NCBI GenBank assembly: GCA_038871175.1 | Contig: JAVZIQ010000003.1 | Location: 1 to 64,000, forward strand | Source: Candidatus Bathyarchaeia archaeon | GTDB lineage: Archaea; Thermoproteota; Bathyarchaeia; Bathyarchaeales; Bathycorpusculaceae | DNA: 64,000 nucleotides | Reading direction: 5' to 3' | Shown: piece by piece, positions 6,595 to 52,299 of the stretch | Numbering within the stretch: the first letter of the stretch is position 1 | Layout of the letters: the number at the start of each line of letters is the position of its first letter | Position numbers and translations under genes: made by a program | The notes under the pieces: generated by a model | The model's input: the letters and a program-made list of their open reading frames with translations, nothing else | Told to the model about the DNA's origin: nothing | Database searches by the model: none

Positions 6595-6672
6595 GCGGCC
6601 GTAGTCTAGCCTGGGCTAGGACATCAGCCTGCCACGCTGACGACCCGGGTTCAAATCCCGGCGGCCGCACCA
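6595..6672 (+). tRNA. tRNA-Gly (GCC), CCA encoded
   Basis: Cloverleaf folded by hand: acceptor GCGGCCG/CGGCCGC, anticodon stem TCAGC/GCTGA with loop CTGCCAC, T arm CCGGG-TTCAAAT-CCCGG, discriminator A plus CCA. Confidence 0.9.
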
Positions 6673-6698
6673 TCGTTTGGACAAAACATCAGCACTTT

Positions 6699-7927
6699 TC
6701 ACTTACGCTTCCTAAACAGTTTTACGCCTTCAACTTCGCATACGTATTCAAACCCGGCTTCAATCAGCTCAGCAGCCTGCTCAACGGTTTTGGCAGCTTT
6801 GCAGACATAAGCGTCTTCAGCGTCGCCGTTTATCAACTGAGTGTAAACAAACGTGTTCTTAATGTTTCTATGGCCCAGCACCTGCATTACATGGAGTATG
6901 TCCTTGGTTTTATGATATTCCATTGTAGCCTTCCAGTGGCGCAAAGTGCGAAACGATATTTTCAGAAGCCTTGAGTTTCCAAGCTTATGGGCAATTCTTT
7001 TACGGTTTCTTTCAAAGGTGCAGCTTAGGCTTCTTAGGCTTCCATAATTGCTGAATATGTTTTCGCCCTTTTTTGGAAGGCTGTTAAGCATGCTGACGAG
7101 TTTGTTTGAGATTTTGAGGATTCTCGGGTTGCTTCCCTTTTCAGGGGTTATTCTCACGGTTTTTGCTTTTGTGTCGATGTCGATCCATTTCAAGTTGAAG
7201 ATTTCGCCCGCTCTGGCGCCGGTTTCCTTTGTAATTTGAAGGAATGTGCAATTTGTTTGTTGCATCCTGCGATGAGGTCGTCGATTTCTCTTTCAAGGGG
7301 AATGAACGGAAGTTTTCTTATGGCCTTGTATCTTGGTTTTTCCCATTTTAAGCCGGCCCATTTTGCAAAGAGGTCGTAGGCGTAAGCTGTTGTTTCTTTG
7401 CCTGAGTCACTCCATTTCTGTGCAGCTATGGCTTCCTTAACGCTTTCTGGGTCTAGCAGGTTTGCTCCAAGCTTTACAAGCCTTCTAAGCCTTGAACCTT
7501 TACCGCGTATTGTTGTGTCTTTGTATCCTTGCTTTTTCATCCACCAGAGGAATTCAAGGAGTTTTCCCTGAAGCTCAGTTTGGCCAGGCTTCACTGTTGC
7601 CCCCGCAGCCCGCTGTTCAGCGTGGGTTTTAACTTCGGTCAAGGCTTGCACCGCCCTCTGGGCGGAGGACGCTGCGCATGATGCCTCATAGCTTCCTTGA
7701 CAATTAGAAGTTAAGCCATCAGCGCAATTTAAAATCTGCCTATCAACTTTTGAGGCATGTTGAAACTTTTCTGAACAGTTGAGATTTTTCTCGGTGAAGC
7801 GGTAACCGCACGTTCTACATAACCAACGTTGAAGGCTTGAGCCGTCTGCCAAATAGCGTAAACCGTCTCTGTAAAGCGTTGTGCCTCCGCATATTGGACA
7901 GGCAAGTGTTTCGGGCTTGGATGCCAC
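6699..7927 (-). pseudogene. Tyrosine recombinase/integrase split by a single-base frameshift near 7246-7248
   Basis: ORF 7190-7927 has an N-terminal Zn ribbon (CPICG...CRTCG) and a core-binding region. ORF 6699-7265 has the catalytic domain (ETGARAGE, LRHWKAT, LGHRNIKNTFVYTQL). The frames switch inside ...LIAGCNKQIA|TFLQITKETG..., consistent with one missing A. Confidence 0.8.
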
Positions 7928-7931
7928 TTGT

Positions 7932-9725
7932 TTAGGCGTCTCCTGTCTGCTGTTTTTCCCATATTTCTTTACAGTCTTCGCATAGCCACAAGCTTTCGCC
8001 TTTGAATGGTTCAGCCTTCCAGCTTGTCAGCTTAGTGTAGCCGCAGACCTCGCATTTGTGCCAGCCGTAAAAGCCGTCGCTCCAGTGGACAGCCTTAAAA
8101 TTCCGCAATTTGTTGATTTTTTCGTTTTCAACTAATTTTGAAGCACTTTCTGTCAAAGAGGCTTTGTTTGTGGTTAAAGAAATATTTGCACACATGCCTG
8201 TTTCGCTCTGGAAGTGTTTAGCGTATAGATCCTCAACGGTGATTTCGCGTTCGCTGATAATGTTTTCTTTAAGCGAGAGGGTGTTGTGTGCAAATATTTT
8301 TTCAGCGCCTTTCAGCCACTCTTTTAGCGTTTCAATGGTGAAAATAGACGAAAACTGCGAATTCAACAAATTGCGGGATTTTTCACCATTATGAATCGCC
8401 TCGTAAAGTTGACGTCTTTTGTCTGCTGGGTCGGGCTTGCTTGTTAAATAGCCTATGCTGCAGAGAAAAGCGGCCCATCTTCTTACGGCGTCGCTTGACT
8501 TCTTTTCCTCTGCTCGACCTTTCCATTTCTCCGTCAACTCTTCAAGGGTGAACTCTTCTTTTTCTTTGGCCAGCGGCTCAACAGCCTCGTGGTAGAATCT
8601 GATTATGTGTCCTGGCGCAGAGGTTTCCGTTGTTTCCCGGATGTTTTGCCACAGCGCCATTACAAAGTCGTAGTCGCGCCGTGTCACCATTATGTAGCGT
8701 TCTTCAATTTCCTTGCATTGACTGGTTGAGGAGTCTTCCGCTGCCTTTTCTGGTTTGATTTTTCTTATTACCAGCGGTCTTTGGGCGAAGTGGAAAAGCG
8801 CGGAGACTTTGACGAGGTTTGTTAGGTGCTTGAAGTCGCGCATTGAGCGTGGCGAGCGGCTTGGGAAAGCCTCGGCGAATTTCATTGCGTATGGGTCCAC
8901 GGCTTTTATTTCGCTTAGGTGGTTTTTTAGAAAGCGTATGTAGCCTTCTAGGAGCATGTAGTCAAAGTCGTTTTGGAAAATCCATGGGTAAGCTGCCTTC
9001 TTGCCTGTTAGGATGTTTGCTGCCTGATACTTTTTCTGGGTCATTTCAGGGGTTATGGTGAAGCCTCTTGTGGCGAGGTCCTGCACGTATTTTTCCTGAG
9101 TGCTGCAGAATATCGTGGCAGGCCAGCCTTGGATTATGACATGTTGCGTTTGCAACTGATCTTTGCCCGACTTGTCCGTAAAGCGATAACTAATTTGGTA
9201 GGCGTCGTGGCTTAGGATTGACCTTAACATGTTGAAGGTTTCAAAGTGCGGCGCTTCTAAGAATACAAGTATTTTGCCGCTTAACTCGACTAGGTAACGA
9301 GTGTCTTTCAGCTTTTGAATCCAAGCTTCTTTCTCTTCTGGCGATGCGTCTTTGTCTGGCTTGTGGGATGGCAGTATTAGGTCTCCATTTTCGTCGATGA
9401 GAATGCCATGTTGATGGATTAACGCGGTTGGGCTTAGTCCACCGAGAAGCCAAACATCGTCTTTTGGAAAATATTTTAGGGCTTGCACTACATTGTAGCT
9501 TTTTCCTATGCTGCTTTCTCCCCGCAAAAACAGGTTTATGGGTTCAGGCGTGTAGGCGCTTAGGGCTGTTAGGAAAACCATGTTTTTTGTTATGATGTCC
9601 CTGCGCACGGTTCGGCTTAAATGCCTAAGGAATTTGCTGTAAAGCCTTGGATCTACGGCGAGCAGGTCTCCAGCCTTGAAGCCTCCGAGCGTTTTGAGTT
9701 CTGCAAGGTTGAAGAGGCTGCTCAT
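7932..9725 (-). CDS. P-loop NTPase with C-terminal zinc ribbon (putative replication/helicase-type protein of the integrated element)
   Basis: Walker A LRGESSIGKS, a hydrophobic strand plus acidic residue ILVFLEAP (Walker B-like), and C-terminal CEVCG...CEDC. The gene ends 5 nt before the integrase start. Confidence 0.55.
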   Translation of the reverse strand: MSSLFNLAELKTLGGFKAGDLLAVDPRLYSKFLRHLSRTVRRDIITKNMVFLTALSAYTPEPINLFLRGESSIGKSYNVVQALKYFPKDDVWLLGGLSPTALIHQHGILIDENGDLILPSHKPDKDASPEEKEAWIQKLKDTRYLVELSGKILVFLEAPHFETFNMLRSILSHDAYQISYRFTDKSGKDQLQTQHVIIQGWPATIFCSTQEKYVQDLATRGFTITPEMTQKKYQAANILTGKKAAYPWIFQNDFDYMLLEGYIRFLKNHLSEIKAVDPYAMKFAEAFPSRSPRSMRDFKHLTNLVKVSALFHFAQRPLVIRKIKPEKAAEDSSTSQCKEIEERYIMVTRRDYDFVMALWQNIRETTETSAPGHIIRFYHEAVEPLAKEKEEFTLEELTEKWKGRAEEKKSSDAVRRWAAFLCSIGYLTSKPDPADKRRQLYEAIHNGEKSRNLLNSQFSSIFTIETLKEWLKGAEKIFAHNTLSLKENIISEREITVEDLYAKHFQSETGMCANISLTTNKASLTESASKLVENEKINKLRNFKAVHWSDGFYGWHKCEVCGYTKLTSWKAEPFKGESLWLCEDCKEIWEKQQTGDA

Positions 9726-10317: not shown

Positions 10318-11304
10318 TTGTTGATGGAGGCTGGCTCTCCTAAGCTGTTGTTCGATTTGGTGGATTTTAAGCCTATCCGTCATATCTTGTGGGTTGGCCT
10401 TCACGTGGATGGTGCTGGCAGGCCTGTGGTTTATGATCCTGAGTGGGATTTGAGGGCTTTGATGCTAAGGTTGCTTTTGCAGCTTAGATACGTTAAGGAT
10501 TTGGTTAGGCTTTTAAGGCGAAGCGCATATTTTAGAGAAGCCTGCGGCTATAGGGGTAGGGTGTCCAGTGAGGCTCATTTCAGCCAGATGAAGAAGCGCA
10601 TTGGCATGGATGGTTTTAAGGCTGTTGAGGGCTATCTTCGTGGAGAAGCTAATAGACTTAGGGCTAAATATCCTCTTTTGGCTTTAGGCTTGGTTCAGGC
10701 AGCATGCTTTGATGGTACAGACCTTAAAGCTTGGAGCAGCCGAAACCCGAAGGATAATACGCGGGGACTTGGAGATCCAGGGGCTAGGGTTGGAAGGGGC
10801 CCTGAAGGCTTCTATCTGGGCTATAGAAGCCTACCGTTGGGGCATGTTGAGGATTCGGCAAACGTCAACGAGAAAGATCTCGTAGAAAAGGTTTTAGAGG
10901 ATGCTTTAGGCGGCGACTTTGAGGTTGAGTTGGTTGTTGGAGACAGCCAACTAGAGTCTAAAAAGGTATTCCGAAAAGTGGAAAACAGGAAAATAGCCCA
11001 TGTAATTCCATGGAGAAAGCTGAAAGGAAGAACTAACCCTCCAGACGTGCTCACAGTTAAGGATAAAATAAGCGTTGAGGGACCTGAACACTTAAAGGTT
11101 ATATACGGCCGCTTGAGGGCTACTGCTGAAGGCTTTGTTTCCACGCTTAAAACCCAGATTGGCTACGACAACTATACATGGAAAGGCTTAGACAACGCTA
11201 CAATCCACACATGCCTAGCCTTCAGCCTAATCTACGCCGTGACAATAGCAGCAATAAAAATGGGAAAACCGGAAAAAGCAAGAAGCATAACATACTTCAA
11301 ATAG
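10318..11304 (+). CDS. DDE transposase of IS-B
   Basis: Motifs DGTDL, GARVGRG, ANVNEKD, VGDSQ and RATAEGFVSTLK (Y/R..E..K-type region of IS4/IS5 transposases). 328 aa. Confidence 0.8.
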   Translation: MLMEAGSPKLLFDLVDFKPIRHILWVGLHVDGAGRPVVYDPEWDLRALMLRLLLQLRYVKDLVRLLRRSAYFREACGYRGRVSSEAHFSQMKKRIGMDGFKAVEGYLRGEANRLRAKYPLLALGLVQAACFDGTDLKAWSSRNPKDNTRGLGDPGARVGRGPEGFYLGYRSLPLGHVEDSANVNEKDLVEKVLEDALGGDFEVELVVGDSQLESKKVFRKVENRKIAHVIPWRKLKGRTNPPDVLTVKDKISVEGPEHLKVIYGRLRATAEGFVSTLKTQIGYDNYTWKGLDNATIHTCLAFSLIYAVTIAAIKMGKPEKARSITYFK

Positions 11305-11505: not shown

Positions 11506-11523
11506 CAATTATTTAATCGCCCC
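11506..11523. repeat. IS-B right terminal inverted repeat
   Basis: Exact reverse complement of 10260-10277. It supplies the stop codon of the truncated IS-A transposase ORF. Confidence 0.9.
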
Positions 11524-12382
11524 GCTCTAGCTTTGAGGCTTTGAATGCCCTTTCAACAGGCATCCTACGCTTATAAAGCTCAACAAGCCTTTTTTCGCCC
11601 TTAACCCTGAAACGCTTAGTCACGTATAAGCGTATTAATGGCTCCTTAACCTTCGAAGAGTGGGGTATTACTGGTTCAGCTCCATAACTACTTATCGTCT
11701 TGAAGACTTCTTCTGAATAGTATTGGCTGTCTGCTATGAAGTGGCTAATGCCCTTTCCATAACGCTTCAGAAGCTTCGAAGCCCTATCCATTAATGGCCT
11801 AACCGCTACTTTGTCATTTACGTTAGCCGCTCGTACGATGTAGGTTATGGGCAAAGTCTTCATACATACAAGCGTGTGGCTTCTCCATCCAAGCTTGTAA
11901 CTTCGCCTATCAGCCCTGCCAACCCTAGCGCCCCTATCGCTTATTCCGCCCTTCCTACCACGCCTAGAATAAGTCTTCATAAAAGTGCTGTCAGTACTAA
12001 CCATAATTAAATCTGAAGCGTCTATTATGGCCATGTTGAAAGCTTGATTTAGAAAATCGTTGAAGAGCTTCTCAATGTTTTCAGGCCTAGCACGAGTAAT
12101 AAACTTGCTGAAAGTTGAATGGTCTGGAGTTCTATCACCAAACTCGCATATTTCACGGGCATACTGACGCCTCTCAAGCCTCCTGCAAAGCTTCCTAACC
12201 GAAGGAATGGCCTCAAAACGCATAAACATCAAAGCCAACAACATGGAACGCACACTAAAGCGAGGCCTACCACGACCGCTATCAGCGTACTCAGCCTCAA
12301 TAAGGCTTACAGTTACGCTTATATCGATATTGGAGAACAATAACTTGAGGGTGTCAAGGGGTAACCCGAGAAATCGGTTCAA
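11524..12382 (-). pseudogene. IS-A DDE transposase, C-terminally truncated by IS-B
   Basis: TTG start with SD GGAGGTGA. Motifs DSTF, GARVGRAD, ANVNDK, ADSQYY, RMPVERAFKASK. The native sequence stops at ...KASKLE, and the last codons plus stop (RGD*) come from the IS-B repeat. About 50 C-terminal residues are missing relative to IS-B. Confidence 0.8.
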
Positions 12383-12870: not shown

Positions 12871-12969
12871 CGCCGGGGGTGGGATTTGAACCCACGCGGC
12901 CCAAAGGGCCACAGGCTTCCAAGCATATAGTCTCCAGGCCTGCTCCCTACCTGACTAGGAGACCCCGGC
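12871..12969 (-). tRNA. tRNA-Ser (GGA) with a 14-nt intron at or near position 37/38
   Basis: Acceptor GCCGGGG/CCCCGGC, long variable arm TGGCCCTTTGGGCCGC, T arm GTGGG-TTCAAAT-CCCAC. The anticodon stem CAGGC/GCCTG encloses 21 nt, which is a 7-nt loop CTGGAGA plus 14 extra nt. Confidence 0.8.
12918..12931 (-). other. tRNA-Ser(GGA) intron (ACTATATGCTTGGA in RNA sense)
   Basis: Inferred from the excess length between the two anticodon-stem halves. The exact boundaries are ambiguous by 1 nt, and I could fold only a relaxed BHB. Confidence 0.55.
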
Positions 12970-13101: not shown

Positions 13102-13716
13102 TTAGCTATTTTGTTTTTCTGACAATAGAACGCGGTAGCCGCTTTCTCTAGCTATTATTTCTAAGTTTCCGAAGGTTTCTCTGAATGTTTGCATGAGTCT
13201 TTCGCCGACAACTTTTGATTTTAAGACTATTTGGAGTGTGGCTTTTTCCGCCATGTGCTCTGGAGCTTGAAATATTATTTTTTTAATAGTGGTCAGTCCG
13301 GCGCTTACTGGGGGGTTTGAAAGTATGCAGTTGAAAACCATGTCTTTTACGGGTTCGTAGAGGTTGCCTCTTCTAACCTCAACGTTGGCCGCTTTGTTCA
13401 GGGCTATGTTTCTTTTTGCAAGCATGACGGCACGTTGGTTTAGGTCTATCATGACCACTTGGAGGTTTGGGTTGAAGGTTGCAGCTGCTATTCCAACAGC
13501 TCCGTAGCCGCATCCTATGTCTAGAACGTAGCCCTTTTCAGGAAGCCTCATTGCCTCTATAAGAAGCTTTGTCCCTGGGTCTAAACGTTTTTTGGAGAAC
13601 ACTCCTGAAGCTGTTAGGAATTTGTAGGGTTTCCCCCTTAGGTAAGTGTGGATAACTCCGAATTTCAGCTTGGATTTTGGATGGGATGTGAAGTAGTGGT
13701 TAGCCTTTTCAGGCAT
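13102..13716 (-). CDS. Class I SAM-dependent methyltransferase (RsmC/MTS small-domain type)
   Basis: VLDIGCGYGAVGI (motif I) and ILSNPPV (NPPY-like motif IV). The stop abuts the cbf5 stop region. Confidence 0.8.
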   Translation of the reverse strand: MPEKANHYFTSHPKSKLKFGVIHTYLRGKPYKFLTASGVFSKKRLDPGTKLLIEAMRLPEKGYVLDIGCGYGAVGIAAATFNPNLQVVMIDLNQRAVMLAKRNIALNKAANVEVRRGNLYEPVKDMVFNCILSNPPVSAGLTTIKKIIFQAPEHMAEKATLQIVLKSKVVGERLMQTFRETFGNLEIIARESGYRVLLSEKQNS

Positions 13717-14791
13717 TTAGATCTCGCCGCTTCTCCAGCATTTGGGGTATGTGCCCCGAGGCATTAAAACCCTTCTCGTTTTAGCAACAACTCCATGTTC
13801 CATTTTTAGGATATCCTCTGTTGAGGATTGAGCTGTTGCCAGGGCTACAGCTTCCCCTTTAAGGGTGAAAAGGGCAACAGCTGAACCGGTTTTTATTCCA
13901 GTTTCAATTGATAAAACTCCTGGAGCGGTTAGGTTTGCCCCATGGCATATGGCGTCCACAGCTGAGTCTCTTATGTAAATTTTCGGTACTAGGGCTAAGG
14001 CCTTCTCCATTGGCTTGATGAAACTTTTAAGCTTCACGTCTTCTTTCTTCTCTTGCCATTCCATAAACATGTAAGCCACGTCATGGAGGGTTACAATGTT
14101 TTCATCTTCCACGAAGGGACCAGCTCTTGTTCTTCGAAGCTCCTGCATGTGAGCCCCGCATCCTAGAACTTCGCCTATGTGGTGGCAGAGCATGCGTATG
14201 TATGTTCCCCCTTCACATCCAACCCTGAAAAGCACACTTCGCCTTTCCATCTCTAAGAAATCCAAATAGTATATTTTCCTCGTCCTAAGATGACGTTTAA
14301 CAGAAGCCCTGAGGGGAGGCCTCTGATAAATAGTGTCCTCAAAAATTTTTAAGACTTCCCTAACTCTCTCTTCTTGGATGTCGCCGTGAAGCTTCATTAG
14401 GCAAACGTATTCTTTTCCGCTTAACAGCAGTGCCTGAACAATTTTTCTAGACTCTTCAAGAGTTATAGGCAGAACACCGGTCACGTTGGGATTTCTCCGG
14501 CGTTAAAGCCTCAAGAGTCCCTCCGTGACCTATGCTCTTAAGGTTTAATATGCGTTTAACCCATGCAGCCACTTCGTGGCTTGTTGGGCCTGCAGGCTTG
14601 TCAAGGTTTATGACGCCGTATTTGATGTGTTCAACTGCAGGCCGCTGTTCAGGGGGACACCCATATTTCGGGTCTGTTTCTCCTTCAGCCTTCACAATTA
14701 GCTTACGTTCAATTTCCCATGGAGCAGCACTTCTAGGCAAATATGTGGACACCTCTATGCAAAGGATAAAATGGCTTAAACCTAAAAACAT
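13717..14791 (-). CDS. cbf5: Cbf5 (H/ACA RNP pseudouridine synthase, TruB family), interrupted by a 19-nt BHB intron at 14493-14511
   Basis: Exon 1 ends ...GVINLDKPAGPTSHEVAAWVKRILNLKSIGHGGTL. Exon 2 reads DPNVTGVLPITLEESRKIV...PUA domain. Exon lengths are 280 + 776 nt = 352 codons after removing the 19 nt. The N-terminal start is uncertain (ATG 14791 or an internal GTG). Confidence 0.9.
14493..14511 (-). other. Bulge-helix-bulge intron in the cbf5 pre-mRNA
   Basis: RNA sense: GGGA-CUCU-[UGA]-GGC-UUUAAC-GCC-GGAG-[AAA]-UCCC, extended by an outer helix GGUCACG/CGUGACC. There are two 3-nt bulges on opposite strands, 4 bp apart. Cutting after the second nt of each bulge gives CUUG|AUCCC = L-D-P. 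Confidence 0.85.
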
Positions 14792-14793
14792 GT

Positions 14794-15126
14794 CTATTTA
14801 ATCTTGGCCTCAGCTAAGGCAGGTTTAACCGGCTGAGCCATTTCCTCAAGCAGGCCTGCCTCCTTTAAAGCCTTTTCCACATCCTCGTCGGATGCACCTC
14901 TCCTAACATCCACTTTAGCTGGAAGAGGCTCCAAATGGCTTGTGTTAGCCCTTCTCCGCCTAACCCCTGTCACTTTTTTAGGGCCGGTTACAAGTACGAA
15001 GTTCTTATCCATCACATCAACTATTACGCATTTCCTTCCAGCCTCTCTTCCTGAAATTTTCACGCAGATTCTACCTATCTCTATTGCCGGCATGGCTGTG
15101 CCACCTCTCTTTAGGAAACACAACAT
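14794..15126 (-). CDS. rpl14e: Ribosomal protein L14e
   Basis: [27 protein letters not shown]...[13 protein letters not shown] (KOW-like L14e signature). The likely true start is the internal ATG at 15093. Confidence 0.9.
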
Positions 15127-22495: not shown

Positions 22496-22872
22496 TTATA
22501 GGTTAACCTTAAGCCTAAAGGGTTCACTTTGGGCTTTAAATACTTTTACAACTCCATTATCAGCGTTAACCCCCCACAGGTCTCCTGTTTCTATGAGCCA
22601 AAAGGGTTTTCTCAAATTTATGAACCATGAACGCGTTTGCTATTACACCGCTGAAAGCTATTACGGTTTCATCTTCAAAATTGATTATGGTTTCAGGGAC
22701 GTTCCCACCCTTAAAAACTATTTGGAAATGCCATTGTCCAGTGGTCAAACCCCTTATCTTATGGGAAGACTAATATCTTCTCCACAATTATTCCCGTGTA
22801 TGGGTTAATCCCCTGCAGTTATTGATATTAGCATCTGGTCACGAGGCTTCCTTTTGCCTTACCTTTGCTCAT
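22496..22872 (-). pseudogene. Decayed AcnX small subunit (DUF126 swivel domain)
   Basis: Hand translation gives MSKGKAKGSLVTRC*YQ*LQGINPYTGIIVEKILVFP*DKG, then a frameshift to TTGQWHFQIVFKGGNVPETIINFEDETVIAFSGVIANAFMVHKFEKT, then a frameshift to LIETGDLWGVNADNGVVKV. This is collinear with the intact paralog 51865-52299. Confidence 0.8.
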
Positions 22873-24116
22873 GTTTGCCACCTGCCCTTGACTGCTGCAT
22901 TAATGCAATTTTCTGTTGAGGCGAGTATGGATCCCATGTTGAAGAGGCCGTGGGAATAGTAAACTTGCTTTACAGAGTTTGTAACCACCACGTGAGCTCC
23001 CTGCTCTTTAAGGTAGGTGTACATCCCTCCTGAAGGACATGTGTCGGCTAAAACTAGCCCTCCAGCCTTTCCTATCATATGGGAGTATCCCATGCGGTCT
23101 GCATAGGATTTTGTGGCCTTTGATGTAAAAACCCAAAGCTTAACTTTAGGGTGAACCTTTTTCCCCTCAAGCAGAATTGCAATTTCCTCTATTTCCTGCA
23201 ATGTGCAGTGGGGACATCCGAAAATTACATAGTCAACCTTTTCCTCGTCCGTCATCCTTAGTTCTTCATAAACATTTTCCACTTCTGAGGGGGTGATTGT
23301 TATCTTTTCATCAGGTTTATCTCCTCCGAAAGCCTCCTTAAGCGTCTGAGCTTCAGGCGTTATGCCCACAGCGTGAAACATGGGAACAGCGCCGGAAACT
23401 GGAAGTGCATAGGCTATGGAGAGGAGGTTTTGAAGAGATATGCTTTTAGGTAAGTTGGCGAAAACAGGAATTTCATCTCCGACAACCCTGCCAGTATGGT
23501 AGGCCATAGCCGCATAGTCTGTCGAAGTGTAATTTTCCAGTTTAAGCTGACTAACGTCGACGAGCACATTTCCAACCCTGTTTTCAGGCAAATGCATTCC
23601 ATACTCTGGAGTTTTTCCAACAACGGCTGCAGCAATGGCTGAGTGGTCACCCTCCCTATTCGTCATGGCGCCAAAAACCGAGTTGGCAAAAACTTCGCTA
23701 ACCGATTCAGCCCAAGCTAAATGCTCACCCTTCCTCGCTAGATTTCCGACAAGAAAGTGTTGACAAGTGTAAAAAAGCTTAAACCCAAGCTTCCTCAAAG
23801 CTTCATCAATTCTAAGCTGCATCTTCCTAAAAATTTCAGGAACAACCATCTCACGCCAAAACTCAAAGTCAAAACACTGAGGATTCACAGTGGCAAAAAC
23901 TTTAGCTTTAACTCCTGATTCAGCAAACTCCTCCAACCACTCAACCCCCTCCACCCCCAAAACCCCAAAATTTCCAGCCATATGAGCACTGCTTACAGGT
24001 ATCAACCTCTCAGCATCATAAAGATCTCCCAAAGCAACCAAAATTTCCATAGCCTTCTCCACACCAGAACCAAATTCCCCCTCAAGCATTCTCTCCTCTT
24101 CCCCAGTCAAATACAT
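22869..24116 (-). CDS. Aconitase X large (catalytic, DUF521) subunit, copy 1
   Basis: 415 aa. Roughly 70 percent identical by eye to ORF 50618-51877. Conserved blocks include IPVSSAHMAGN, GAMTNREGDHSA, GKTPEYGMHLPENR, FGCPHCTLQEIEEIA. Confidence 0.85.
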   Translation of the reverse strand: MYLTGEEERMLEGEFGSGVEKAMEILVALGDLYDAERLIPVSSAHMAGNFGVLGVEGVEWLEEFAESGVKAKVFATVNPQCFDFEFWREMVVPEIFRKMQLRIDEALRKLGFKLFYTCQHFLVGNLARKGEHLAWAESVSEVFANSVFGAMTNREGDHSAIAAAVVGKTPEYGMHLPENRVGNVLVDVSQLKLENYTSTDYAAMAYHTGRVVGDEIPVFANLPKSISLQNLLSIAYALPVSGAVPMFHAVGITPEAQTLKEAFGGDKPDEKITITPSEVENVYEELRMTDEEKVDYVIFGCPHCTLQEIEEIAILLEGKKVHPKVKLWVFTSKATKSYADRMGYSHMIGKAGGLVLADTCPSGGMYTYLKEQGAHVVVTNSVKQVYYSHGLFNMGSILASTENCINAAVKGRWQT

Positions 24117-50617: not shown

Positions 50618-51877
50618 TTGAGAATAAACATGTATTTGACTAATGAAGAGGAAAGGATGCTTAAGGGAGACTTTGGCCGAGGAATACAAAAGGCCATGGA
50701 AATTTTAGTGGCTGTTGGTGATATTAACGAGGCTGAGAGGATGATACCAGTTAGCAGTGCGCATATGGCCGGGAACTACGGACCGTTAAGGGATGAAGGA
50801 GTGGAATGGTTGGAAGAATTTGCTGAATCCGGTGTCAGTGCCAAGGTTTTTACAACGGTGAACCCGCAAGGTTTCGATTTTGATATTCCTAGGGAAATGC
50901 AGGTTCCGGAGAAATTTAGAAAAATTCAGTTAAGAATTGATGGAGCCTTGAGAAAAATTGGGGTTAAGCTTTTTTACACTTGCCAACAGTTTCTAGTTGG
51001 CAACCTGCCTAGGAAGGGTGAGCATTTGGCTTGGGCTGCATCGGAGAGCGAAATCTTCGCCAACTCTGTTCTTGGAGCCATGACGAACAGGGAAGGCGAC
51101 CACTCTGCCCTGGCAGCGGCAGTTACAGGTAAAACCCCGGAGTACGGTATGCATTTGCCTGAAAATAGGATCGCTAAGGTGCTTGTCGATGTATCTGGGC
51201 TTGATTTTGGAAGCTTAACTCAGACGGACTATGCGGCTATAGGGTACCATGTGGGTAAGATTGTTGGCGAAGATATTCCAGTGTTTGTCGGCTTGCCTAA
51301 AGATATTTCCCTTCAAAACCTTCAAGCTTTAGCCTATCCTCTTCCAGTTTCCGGCGCTGTGCCAATGTTCCATCTGGTGGGAATAACGCCGGAGGCTCCA
51401 ACACTCGAGGTAGCTTTTGGAGGGGATAAACCTGAAGATAAAATATCAGTTGCAGCCTTTGATATAAGGAATGTTTATGAGGAGTGCCGCAGGACAGAGG
51501 AGGAGAAAGTTGATCTGGTAATTTTTGGCTGTCCCCACTGCACCTTGCAGGAAATAGAGGAAATCGCATTAATGCTGGAGGGAAGAAAAGTTCGTAATGG
51601 AACAAAGTTTTGGGTGTGCACCTCTAAGGCTACTAAGGCGTTTGCTGAACGTATGGGCTATGGAGATTTAATAAGAAGAGCTGGAGGTTTACTTGTGGCT
51701 GACACATGCCCTTCCGGAGGGCCATATGCCTATCTGAAGGAACAGGGAACCAACGTTGTTGTCACTAATTCCTTGAAGGCAGCTTACTATGCCTATGGCC
51801 TTTTTGGAATGGGTACTGTATTCGCCTCCACCAAAGATTGTGTGGAGGCTGCTGTTAAAGGGAGATGGGAAAAATGA
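50618..51877 (+). CDS. Aconitase X large (catalytic, DUF521) subunit, copy 2
   Basis: Paralog of 22869-24116. The probable start is ATG 50630 (MYLTNEEERML). Confidence 0.88.
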   Translation: MRINMYLTNEEERMLKGDFGRGIQKAMEILVAVGDINEAERMIPVSSAHMAGNYGPLRDEGVEWLEEFAESGVSAKVFTTVNPQGFDFDIPREMQVPEKFRKIQLRIDGALRKIGVKLFYTCQQFLVGNLPRKGEHLAWAASESEIFANSVLGAMTNREGDHSALAAAVTGKTPEYGMHLPENRIAKVLVDVSGLDFGSLTQTDYAAIGYHVGKIVGEDIPVFVGLPKDISLQNLQALAYPLPVSGAVPMFHLVGITPEAPTLEVAFGGDKPEDKISVAAFDIRNVYEECRRTEEEKVDLVIFGCPHCTLQEIEEIALMLEGRKVRNGTKFWVCTSKATKAFAERMGYGDLIRRAGGLLVADTCPSGGPYAYLKEQGTNVVVTNSLKAAYYAYGLFGMGTVFASTKDCVEAAVKGRWEK

Positions 51878-52299
51878 CTCAGAAAATAGTGTTAAAAGCC
51901 AAACCGGTATGTAAGGGTAAAGCTGAAGGGGAAGCAATGGTTACCAAAACGCCGATATCCATCACAGGAGGTCTAAACCCCTATGATGGTAAAATTGTGG
52001 AAAGGGGACACCCACTTGAAGGGAAAAGTGTTGCTGGAAAAATATTGGTTTTCCCTCACGGTAAAGGCTCAACTACCGGACCATGGCAGTTTTATGTTGC
52101 CTATAAACGTGGGAACGCTCCTAAAGCCATAATCAACGTTAAAGCAGAGGCAGTGGTTGCTGTCAGCGCCCTAATTACAAACACTCCCATGGTACATATG
52201 CTAGAGAAAAACCCCTTAGAGGTTATAGAAACAGGAGACTACGTTGTCGTCGACGCCGATAACGGAATTGTAGAAATAACCAAGCAAAACAAACATTAG
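51865..52299 (+). CDS. Aconitase X small (swivel, DUF126) subunit, intact
   Basis: GKAEGEAMVTKTPISITGGLNPYDGKIVE...GKILVFPHGKGSTTGPWQF. The start may be ATG 51874, overlapping the large-subunit stop (ATGA). Confidence 0.85.
   Translation: MGKMTQKIVLKAKPVCKGKAEGEAMVTKTPISITGGLNPYDGKIVERGHPLEGKSVAGKILVFPHGKGSTTGPWQFYVAYKRGNAPKAIINVKAEAVVAVSALITNTPMVHMLEKNPLEVIETGDYVVVDADNGIVEITKQNKH

Follow-up and report, generated by a model that had tools for sequence, protein, structure and literature searches.

Introns that are removed from archaeal protein-coding sequences by the splicing endonuclease are extremely rare. The closest described case is the intron of cbf5, the gene of the pseudouridine synthase of H/ACA ribonucleoproteins, which in Crenarchaeota lies between the first and second nucleotides of the catalytic Asp codon, is 16–44 bp long, is known from Desulfurococcales and Sulfolobales and is absent from Thermoproteales, Cenarchaeum, Nitrosopumilus and Korarchaeum (Yokobori et al. 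2009, PMC2738675). Both cDNA and endonuclease cleavage experiments have demonstrated its splicing (PMC2738675, PMC10485636), and Watanabe and colleagues proposed that it down-regulates Cbf5 expression (PMC2738675). Cleavage by EndA followed by ligation by RtcB is the established pathway for substrates of the bulge-helix-bulge (BHB) type (PMC7714728, PMC10485636). Here, we analyse 64,000 nt of DNA from Candidatus Bathyarchaeia archaeon (assembly GCA_038871175.1, contig JAVZIQ010000003.1, positions 1 to 64,000 of the forward strand; this whole stretch is called the window), in which cbf5 is interrupted by 19 nt at the catalytic Asp codon. These 19 nt, 14493–14511, are very probably a tRNA-type BHB intron, whose removal by endonuclease splicing would recreate the Asp codon and a full-length Cbf5.

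Two overlapping open reading frames (ORFs) on the minus strand, 14456–14791 and 13717–14484, together encode one protein, the first its N-terminal and the second its C-terminal part, as a sequence-only reading of this DNA had proposed. When 14493–14511 (RNA sense AGGCUUUAACGCCGGAGAA) is excised, the ORFs join in one frame of 1056 nt with the translation ...GHGGTL-D-PNVTGVLPITLEE... (GHGGTLDPNVTG), and the joined protein carries the Pfam domains DKCLD, TruB_N, TruB_C_2 and PUA. The host gene is cbf5, the P. abyssi Cbf5 match having E = 8e-127 over residues 21–346, and the alignment suggested earlier as a check, of the spliced protein to P. abyssi and P. furiosus Cbf5 of solved structure, is gapless across the junction, with GHGGTLDPNVTGVLP opposite GHGGTLDPKVSGVLP. 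The insertion splits the Asp codon after its first base (CUU G^...^AU CCC, carets marking the borders here and below), and the catalytic Asp of the GGTLD motif, which aligns with GGTLDPKVSG of the solved structures, exists only without the 19 nt; the unspliced reading is GGTLEALTPEKS..., lacks the Asp and ends GGTLEALTPEKSQRDRCSAYNS-stop. Besides the 19 nt both exons are intact and highly conserved. As the intron and exon 2 each start with A, sequence alone leaves the borders ambiguous by 1 nt, and it is the BHB cleavage rule (below) that picks 14493–14511. The parts of the gene are as follows.

14512–14740, minus strand: cbf5 exon 1, which probably begins at the TTG and ends with the G of the catalytic Asp codon; DKCLD and the first part of TruB_N
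14493–14511, minus strand: predicted BHB intron of 19 nt, RNA sense A-GGC-UUUAAC-GCC-GGAG-AA
13717–14492, minus strand: cbf5 exon 2, from the AU of the Asp codon through the stop codon; the rest of TruB_N, TruB_C_2 and PUA

A continuous protein of 351 aa had been predicted. The continuous frame stands, but the length assumes a start at ATG 14791, and the true start is probably the TTG at 14740 (14738–14740, minus strand), which would give 334 aa, because relatives begin MPRS(V/A)APWE, corresponding to TTG-CCT-AGA-AGT here, and tblastn matches begin at residue 18. The ATG adds 17 residues that have no counterpart in relatives, and it adjoins the stop codon (14794–14796) of the upstream KOW gene.

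In the transcript the region is predicted to form a 55-nt hairpin (14478–14532, minus strand) of −28.2 kcal/mol with an ensemble frequency of 0.68, and 200 dinucleotide shuffles all fold less stably (z = −5.55). In the strict BHB register the hairpin reads GGUCACG / GA / GGGA-CUCU-[UGA]-GGC-UUUAAC-GCC-GGAG-[AAA]-UCCC / AA / CGUGACC, comprising helix h (GGGA with UCCC, 4 Watson-Crick pairs), the central helix H (CUCU with GGAG, 4 bp), helix h' (GGC with GCC, 3 Watson-Crick pairs) and an outer helix of 7 bp (GGUCACG with CGUGACC). This is the canonical hBHBh' motif with extra outer helix that had been read from the letters: two 3-nt bulges lie on opposite strands 4 bp apart, and h and h' each contain at least the two Watson-Crick pairs of the published definition (PMC7714728). 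The bulges are placed as in pre-tRNAs, each following its strand of the 4-bp helix on the 3' side. In such motifs exon and intron meet between the second and third nucleotides of both bulges (PMC2738675), and this rule, applied here (CUUG^A...AA^AUCCC), removes exactly 14493–14511 and recreates CUU-GAU-CCC (Leu-Asp-Pro). The intron so defined holds no ORF and consists of the last nucleotide of the 5' bulge, h' with its 6-nt loop, the 3' strand of H and the first two nucleotides of the 3' bulge, while much of the remaining structure is made of codons.

14524–14530, minus strand: 5' strand of the outer helix, GGUCACG; Gly-His-Gly codons
14514–14521, minus strand: exonic 5' strands of h (GGGA, 14521–14518) and H (CUCU, 14517–14514); Gly-Thr-Leu codons of GGTL
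14511–14513, minus strand: 5' bulge UG^A, with the predicted cut at 14512/14511; AG^A or GG^A in relatives and Crenarchaeota
14492–14494, minus strand: 3' bulge AA^A, with the predicted cut at 14493/14492; AAA in 29 of 30 aligned sequences and unpaired in RNAalifold
14488–14491, minus strand: exonic 3' strand of h, UCCC; third base of the Asp codon and the Pro codon
14479–14485, minus strand: 3' strand of the outer helix, CGUGACC; last base of the Asn codon, Val and Thr codons

Comparison with relatives bears out the suggestion that this is the same rare class of intron. In a collection with one genome per species, the 80 cbf5 loci nearest to that of the window (the best 94% identical) all come from Bathyarchaeia, except one on a contig labelled Acidoferrum. 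An insertion occupies the exact site between GGTL and D in 33 of them, the other 47 reading GAC or GAU without interruption, and its length varies: with the window included, 18 nt (8 loci), 19 (2), 21 (8), 24 (11), 30 (2) and 33, 36 and 39 (1 each). The frameshifting 19-nt form is found in the window and in L018 only, an independent metagenome-assembled genome (MAG) with a 94% identical protein, in which the 19 nt lie at the identical site and have a different loop. The contig with the Acidoferrum label (L042, DASPTR010000054.1, 'Candidatus Acidoferrum sp.', Acidobacteriota) carries a bathyarchaeal cbf5 with a 24-nt BHB intron, and is probably mis-binned in a public MAG.

The structure is conserved along with the site. 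In a fixed-length alignment, built around the proposed structure from the exon flanks, the first 5 and last 10 intron nucleotides and a linker for the variable interior, 91.9% of pair cells are standard, compared with 21–45% (maximum 44.6%) when the 3' partners are slid by 1–3 columns. H is paired in all 30 distinct sequences, with a change from U-A to C-G in nine and from C-G to U-A in one, and compensatory changes occur in two of the four pairs of H and three of four in h', counts that are affected by the relatedness of the sequences. RNAalifold, applied without that structural premise to unedited sequences with two Sulfolobales included, returns the 4-bp helix, the 3-nt 5' bulge directly followed by h' and three unpaired 3' A's, with five covarying pairs. 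The exons take part as well: synonymous sites of the GHGGTL and DPxVTG codons are fixed for pairing (GGU CAC .. GGG ACY CUN G ^ AU CCC .. GUG ACC) in intron-bearing genes only. The outer helix has on average 5.8 of 7 pairs in the 34 intron-bearing genes and 3.5 of 7 in the 47 intronless ones, the corresponding means for helix h are 3.7 and 2.1 of 4, and the Pro codon, CCC in 32/34 intron-bearing genes, varies freely in intronless genes. What is conserved, then, is a 4-bp helix with a pair of 3-nt bulges whose spacing does not change, while the interior of the intron is free.

A further shared property concerns translation of the unspliced message. Among the bathyarchaeal introns, window included, 32 of 34 are a multiple of three in length and cause no frameshift, and every one of the 32 contains an in-frame stop. 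Adding the two crenarchaeal in-frame introns in the comparison (L083, L084), a stop is present in 34/34 versus about 10.7 expected from composition-preserving shuffles, an excess for which phylogenetic non-independence inflates any P value; the other two frames have a stop in just 12 and 5 of the 34. Neither the position of the stop (codons 3, 4, 8, 9 or 10) nor its identity (TAA 22, TAG 4 and TGA 2 at the commonest position, codon 3) is constant, and this turnover argues for selection against translating the unspliced message. The sequences suggest, in other words, selection on the untranslatability of unspliced cbf5 mRNA rather than on a fixed sequence. Our hypothesis is that the stop or frameshift prevents a full-length but catalytically dead Cbf5 from being made, one that might nonetheless enter a complex with Nop10, Gar1, L7Ae and guide RNAs.

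The sequence-only reading had pointed to cbf5 introns of Aeropyrum and Sulfolobus (Watanabe et al. 2002). The literature on the crenarchaeal intron (Watanabe et al. 2002; Yoshinari et al. 2006; Yokobori et al. 2009, PMC2738675) agrees, and the position was confirmed on the DNA of five Crenarchaeota. A database search with the spliced protein yielded almost only full-length intronless Bathyarchaeia proteins and did not reach Crenarchaeota. A crenarchaeal Cbf5 profile, an approximate one made from segments in the supplement of PMC2738675 (OCR text), did reach them, and all 120 top hits were C-terminal fragments of 200–293 aa. At the DNA level the junctions, with a bathyarchaeal one for comparison, are:

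A. pernix: ACCCUAG^AGCCCC..(38 nt)..GGGGAU^AUCCU
S. islandicus: ACCCUGG^AGCCCAUUUCACUGGGCGGGGUA^AUCCA
Staphylothermus marinus: ACCCUAG^AACCCC..(36 nt)..GGUUAA^ACCCC
Ignisphaera aggregans: ACCCUAG^AGCCCG..(39 nt)..GGGGAG^AUCCG
S. acidocaldarius: ACCCUAG^AACCCGUAUAACGGGUGGGGAA^AUCCC
Bathyarchaeal L001: ACCCUAG^AAGCC..GGGGAA^ACCCC

In all five Crenarchaeota the intron has the identical nucleotide position, G^AY. Exonic CCCU faces intronic GGGG (GGUU in Staphylothermus), in line with a general scheme of exonic ACYCU and intronic RGRG, the 5' bulge is of the AG^A type (GG^A in S. islandicus) and the 3' bulge NN^A. Both groups also share a variable interior, stops in the in-frame versions, lineage-specific losses and the gene order of a KOW ribosomal protein gene (L14e-like), cbf5 and an MTS-family methyltransferase gene (13102–15126 of the window, minus strand; L082–L085, L087). 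In the window the start codon of the methyltransferase gene directly abuts the stop codon of cbf5. The differences are that the host is a member of the Bathyarchaeia, outside the Desulfurococcales/Sulfolobales range; that the motif here is a strict hBHBh' with an additional 7-bp outer helix, whereas most crenarchaeal motifs are called relaxed in the literature, which links them to a broad-specificity (alpha-beta)2 splicing endonuclease; and that splicing has been demonstrated for the crenarchaeal intron while it is predicted for the bathyarchaeal one. With so strict a motif any type of EndA should accept the substrate, and no broad-specificity enzyme would be required. Horizontal transfer of an intron-bearing gene from Crenarchaeota was considered and set aside: bathyarchaeal Cbf5 proteins are 43–56% identical to crenarchaeal ones, below the 55–59% identity to the intronless Pyrococcus Cbf5, and so nothing in them points to a recent transfer. 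The distance to the crenarchaeal Cbf5 set is the same for Bathyarchaeia with and without the intron.

With archaeal pre-tRNA introns, both those at 37/38 and the non-canonical ones, the element shares its recognition motif, the cleavage rule, small size and, as we infer, processing by EndA and RtcB. It differs in that the substrate is an mRNA without a tRNA body, in which the exon strands of the motif are protein-coding and codon choice has been co-opted for RNA structure. An analogy is the splicing of XBP1 and HAC1 mRNA by IRE1 and RtcB in eukaryotes: it is non-spliceosomal and carried out by proteins only, with cleavage at paired stem-loops in an mRNA and RtcB-type ligation, and the XBP1 intron is 26 nt long and its removal changes the reading frame. 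That system uses an unrelated endonuclease and motif and is stress-regulated. Another case is the BHB intron in the 5' untranslated region of Haloferax volcanii HVO_1309, in which the splicing endonuclease likewise acts on a BHB of an mRNA (Schwarz et al. 2020, PMC7714728); that gene is unrelated to cbf5 and its intron lies outside the coding sequence, whereas here the coding sequence is interrupted at a catalytic codon.

Splicing machinery in the host organism is plausible, because a neighbouring tRNA gene itself carries a 14-nt intron at 37/38. This class II tRNA (12871–12969, minus strand) lies 130 nt downstream of the methyltransferase gene, has the anticodon loop CUGGAGA and the insertion ACUAUAUGCUUGGA, and is, judged from the anticodon loop, apparently tRNA-Ser(GGA). 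It has only a minimal BHB, in which h' is very short, and the gene was found by the Rfam tRNA model (45 bits) and missed by ARAGORN. Just beyond it two DDE transposase ORFs (DUF772 and DDE_Tnp_1) lie close together, at 10318–11304 (plus strand) and 11513–12382 (minus strand).

The distribution of the intron among Bathyarchaeia speaks of persistence and loss. In a single-gene, neighbour-joining Cbf5 tree the intron is found in the deep branches and most clades and is missing from several derived groups, including a large clade of mostly soil and peat MAGs, inside which the subclade of L030, L041 and L052 keeps a 24-nt intron. Closer intronless relatives (L086, L087) are on ordinary genomic contigs. 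One further intronless lineage, represented by L088 (on the 84-kb contig Ga0315285_10000097) and L089, keeps all helix-forming codons, joined GGUCACGGCGGGACUCUAG-AUCCCAAAGUGAC at the predicted junction, and intronless L017 keeps the helix codons of exon 1 only; all three look like footprints of recent, nucleotide-precise intron loss. Yokobori et al. (2009) proposed loss through a spliced-mRNA intermediate (PMC2738675), which the L088/L089 junction would fit. The simplest reading of this tree is that the intron was ancestral in Bathyarchaeia and was lost several times.

If the intron is processed as these comparisons suggest, the G-H-G-G-T-L and (D)-P-N-V-T codons of the pre-mRNA would base-pair with one another and, in addition, with the 3' portion of the insertion, forming the outer 7-bp helix and the canonical helix-bulge-helix-bulge-helix. 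EndA would then cut after the second nucleotide of each bulge, at CUUG^A... and ...AA^AUCCC, and RtcB would join the exons, restoring GAU for the catalytic aspartate in an mRNA that encodes full-length Cbf5. Unspliced mRNA would yield no full-length protein, owing to the frameshift here or to an in-frame stop in relatives with a multiple of three, so that active Cbf5 would depend on the tRNA-splicing machinery. Both cleavage and ligation in the host organism, and any regulatory role, belong to this putative scheme.

Several observations weigh against reading the 19 nt as a spliced intron. Neither EndA nor RtcB was found among the ten ORFs around cbf5, to which that search was confined. A scan of JGI metagenome contigs for the spliced junction, using codons specific to intron-bearing genes, gave two hits, both from a genomic intronless lineage and not cDNA. 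The outer helix has no double compensatory changes, since coding constrains it. The minimum free energy (MFE) fold shifts the central helix by one position, the BHB register lying 1 kcal/mol above it, and RNAalifold moves helix h by one position. The shifted MFE register (UCUU with GAGA) was nevertheless rejected, since relatives do not conserve it (slid controls reach at most 45% pairing there); the BHB register is the one conserved, despite its energetic cost. Finally, loosely defined hBHBh' motifs are frequent by chance. The BHB scan suggested earlier for the whole genome was made across the window with strict hBHBh' geometry, G-U pairs allowed and an intron of 12–60 nt, and returned 106 motifs as against about 77 in shuffles, so that the motif by itself is no evidence. 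No candidate in the window other than that of cbf5 coincided with a split ORF (the scan missed the tRNA intron, whose h' is minimal), and in Rfam no family covers the cbf5 element, the window matching only tRNA genes at the gathering threshold. What carries the argument is that the motif falls on the frame break, together with the comparative data; it is the conjunction that is improbable, namely cut sites matching the sole protein-restoring excision, an extra 7-bp helix and the comparative evidence.

Other accounts of the 19 nt have to explain the same data. A gene split in two ORFs could reflect a frameshift mutation or an assembly artefact, leaving cbf5 a pseudogene here, and MAG assemblies do contain indel errors; yet L018 has 19 nt with a different loop at the identical site, 32 more genomes have 18–39 nt there, the structure covaries, exon codons are under selection to pair, and both exons are otherwise intact and highly conserved, making this account extremely unlikely. 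It is very unlikely, if somewhat easier to entertain, that the hairpin is a structured RNA element (a regulatory hairpin or protein-binding site) that is never excised, the gene then giving two polypeptides or a truncated DKCLD fragment without the catalytic Asp. Such an element would account for the great stability of the hairpin, a deliberately truncated product would also fit the conserved in-frame stops, and splicing in this organism is, after all, predicted. Under this account, however, the Asp codon would never be formed although the TruB_N, TruB_C_2 and PUA region is under strong purifying selection, and conservation covers just what the endonuclease requires and leaves the interior free; a same-site element is experimentally spliced in Crenarchaeota (PMC2738675), and in the intronless allele the two exons meet precisely where the cuts are predicted. 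A stable hairpin in a coding gap is also reminiscent of bypassing elements, by which a full-length protein might be made without splicing through translational hopping or programmed frameshifting. To this we assign a practically negligible probability, since the length of the gap ranges over 18–39 nt, there is no matched pair of take-off and landing codons (CUU or CUA before the gap, AUC within), the Asp codon is built from bases upstream and downstream of the gap, something hopping cannot achieve, and it is BHB geometry rather than a bypass signal that is conserved.

How a BHB intron came to occupy the same site in two lineages is a separate matter. Tentatively, we suggest that it is ancient, predating the split of Bathyarchaeia and Thermoprotei, that it has kept one position while often being lost by precise deletion, and that it may persist as a splicing-dependent gate tying the supply of Cbf5 to the EndA/RtcB capacity for tRNA and rRNA splicing, without release of dead Cbf5. 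It is likewise possible, though we would not presume it, that the intron was gained independently in the two lineages or transferred to the same site, with exonic GGNACYCUNG^AYCCN acting as a preferred insertion or proto-splice site: the similarity of bathyarchaeal and crenarchaeal introns is mostly at positions forced to pair with conserved exon codons, the interiors are too short and variable to prove homology, and Thermoproteales, Nitrosopumilus, Cenarchaeum and Korarchaeum lack the intron (PMC2738675). Against separate origins stand the shared exact position, the A as third bulge nucleotide, the A-R-S-C-C start of h' (a purine, then C-rich), the shared length range (18–39 versus 16–44 nt, PMC2738675) and the L14e-cbf5-methyltransferase synteny, as well as the protein identities given above, with their lack of any sign of recent transfer. 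Repeated loss is, moreover, directly visible in Bathyarchaeia, so multiple losses elsewhere are plausible.

Elsewhere in the window, a tRNA-Gly(GCC) gene at 6595–6672 is followed on the opposite strand by the overlapping ORFs 6699–7265 and 7190–7927 and a 597-aa ORF at 7932–9725. By eye, ORF 6699–7265 has a tyrosine-recombinase-like C-terminus (...LRHWKAT...LGHRNIKNTFVYTQ), and the region 6595–9725 may be an integrated element at a tRNA gene with a split or frameshifted integrase. Two ORFs of about 415 aa, 22869–24116 (minus strand) and 50618–51877 (plus strand), are clearly paralogous by eye in their translations, the second followed by a small ORF at 51865–52299.

For annotation, the expectation that the gene would be mis-annotated is borne out. 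In P0012, a protein of 265 aa from a 98% identical relative, the exon-2 ORF has indeed been called as a separate protein, which starts MRLQSRRNPNVTG by reading through the tail of the intron, and the crenarchaeal exon-2 fragments (all 120 top hits of the profile) bear names such as 'Cbf5' or 'tRNA pseudouridine synthase B'. In the 32 of 34 bathyarchaeal introns that stay in frame, the symptom is a premature stop instead of a frameshift. A cbf5 gene in two fragments or with a premature stop in MAGs can therefore distort annotation, and may also distort marker-gene-based completeness estimates and Cbf5 phylogenies.

What is new here is the host lineage, Bathyarchaeia, and the changed evolutionary inference, the element itself being a known kind of intron; in the searchable literature, whose coverage is incomplete, we found no report of a cbf5 intron outside Desulfurococcales and Sulfolobales, nor of any mRNA intron in Bathyarchaeota. 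The host range of the intron is widened to a second, abundant and mostly uncultured class, in which about 40% of the sampled species carry it. The 34 variants form a natural data set of the features under selection: the BHB core, the codon choice of the exons and an obligatory stop or frameshift. The finding challenges an origin of the intron in the common ancestor of Desulfurococcales and Sulfolobales and suggests an older origin with repeated losses, and it makes the question testable, as one ancient insertion against repeated insertion at a favoured site.

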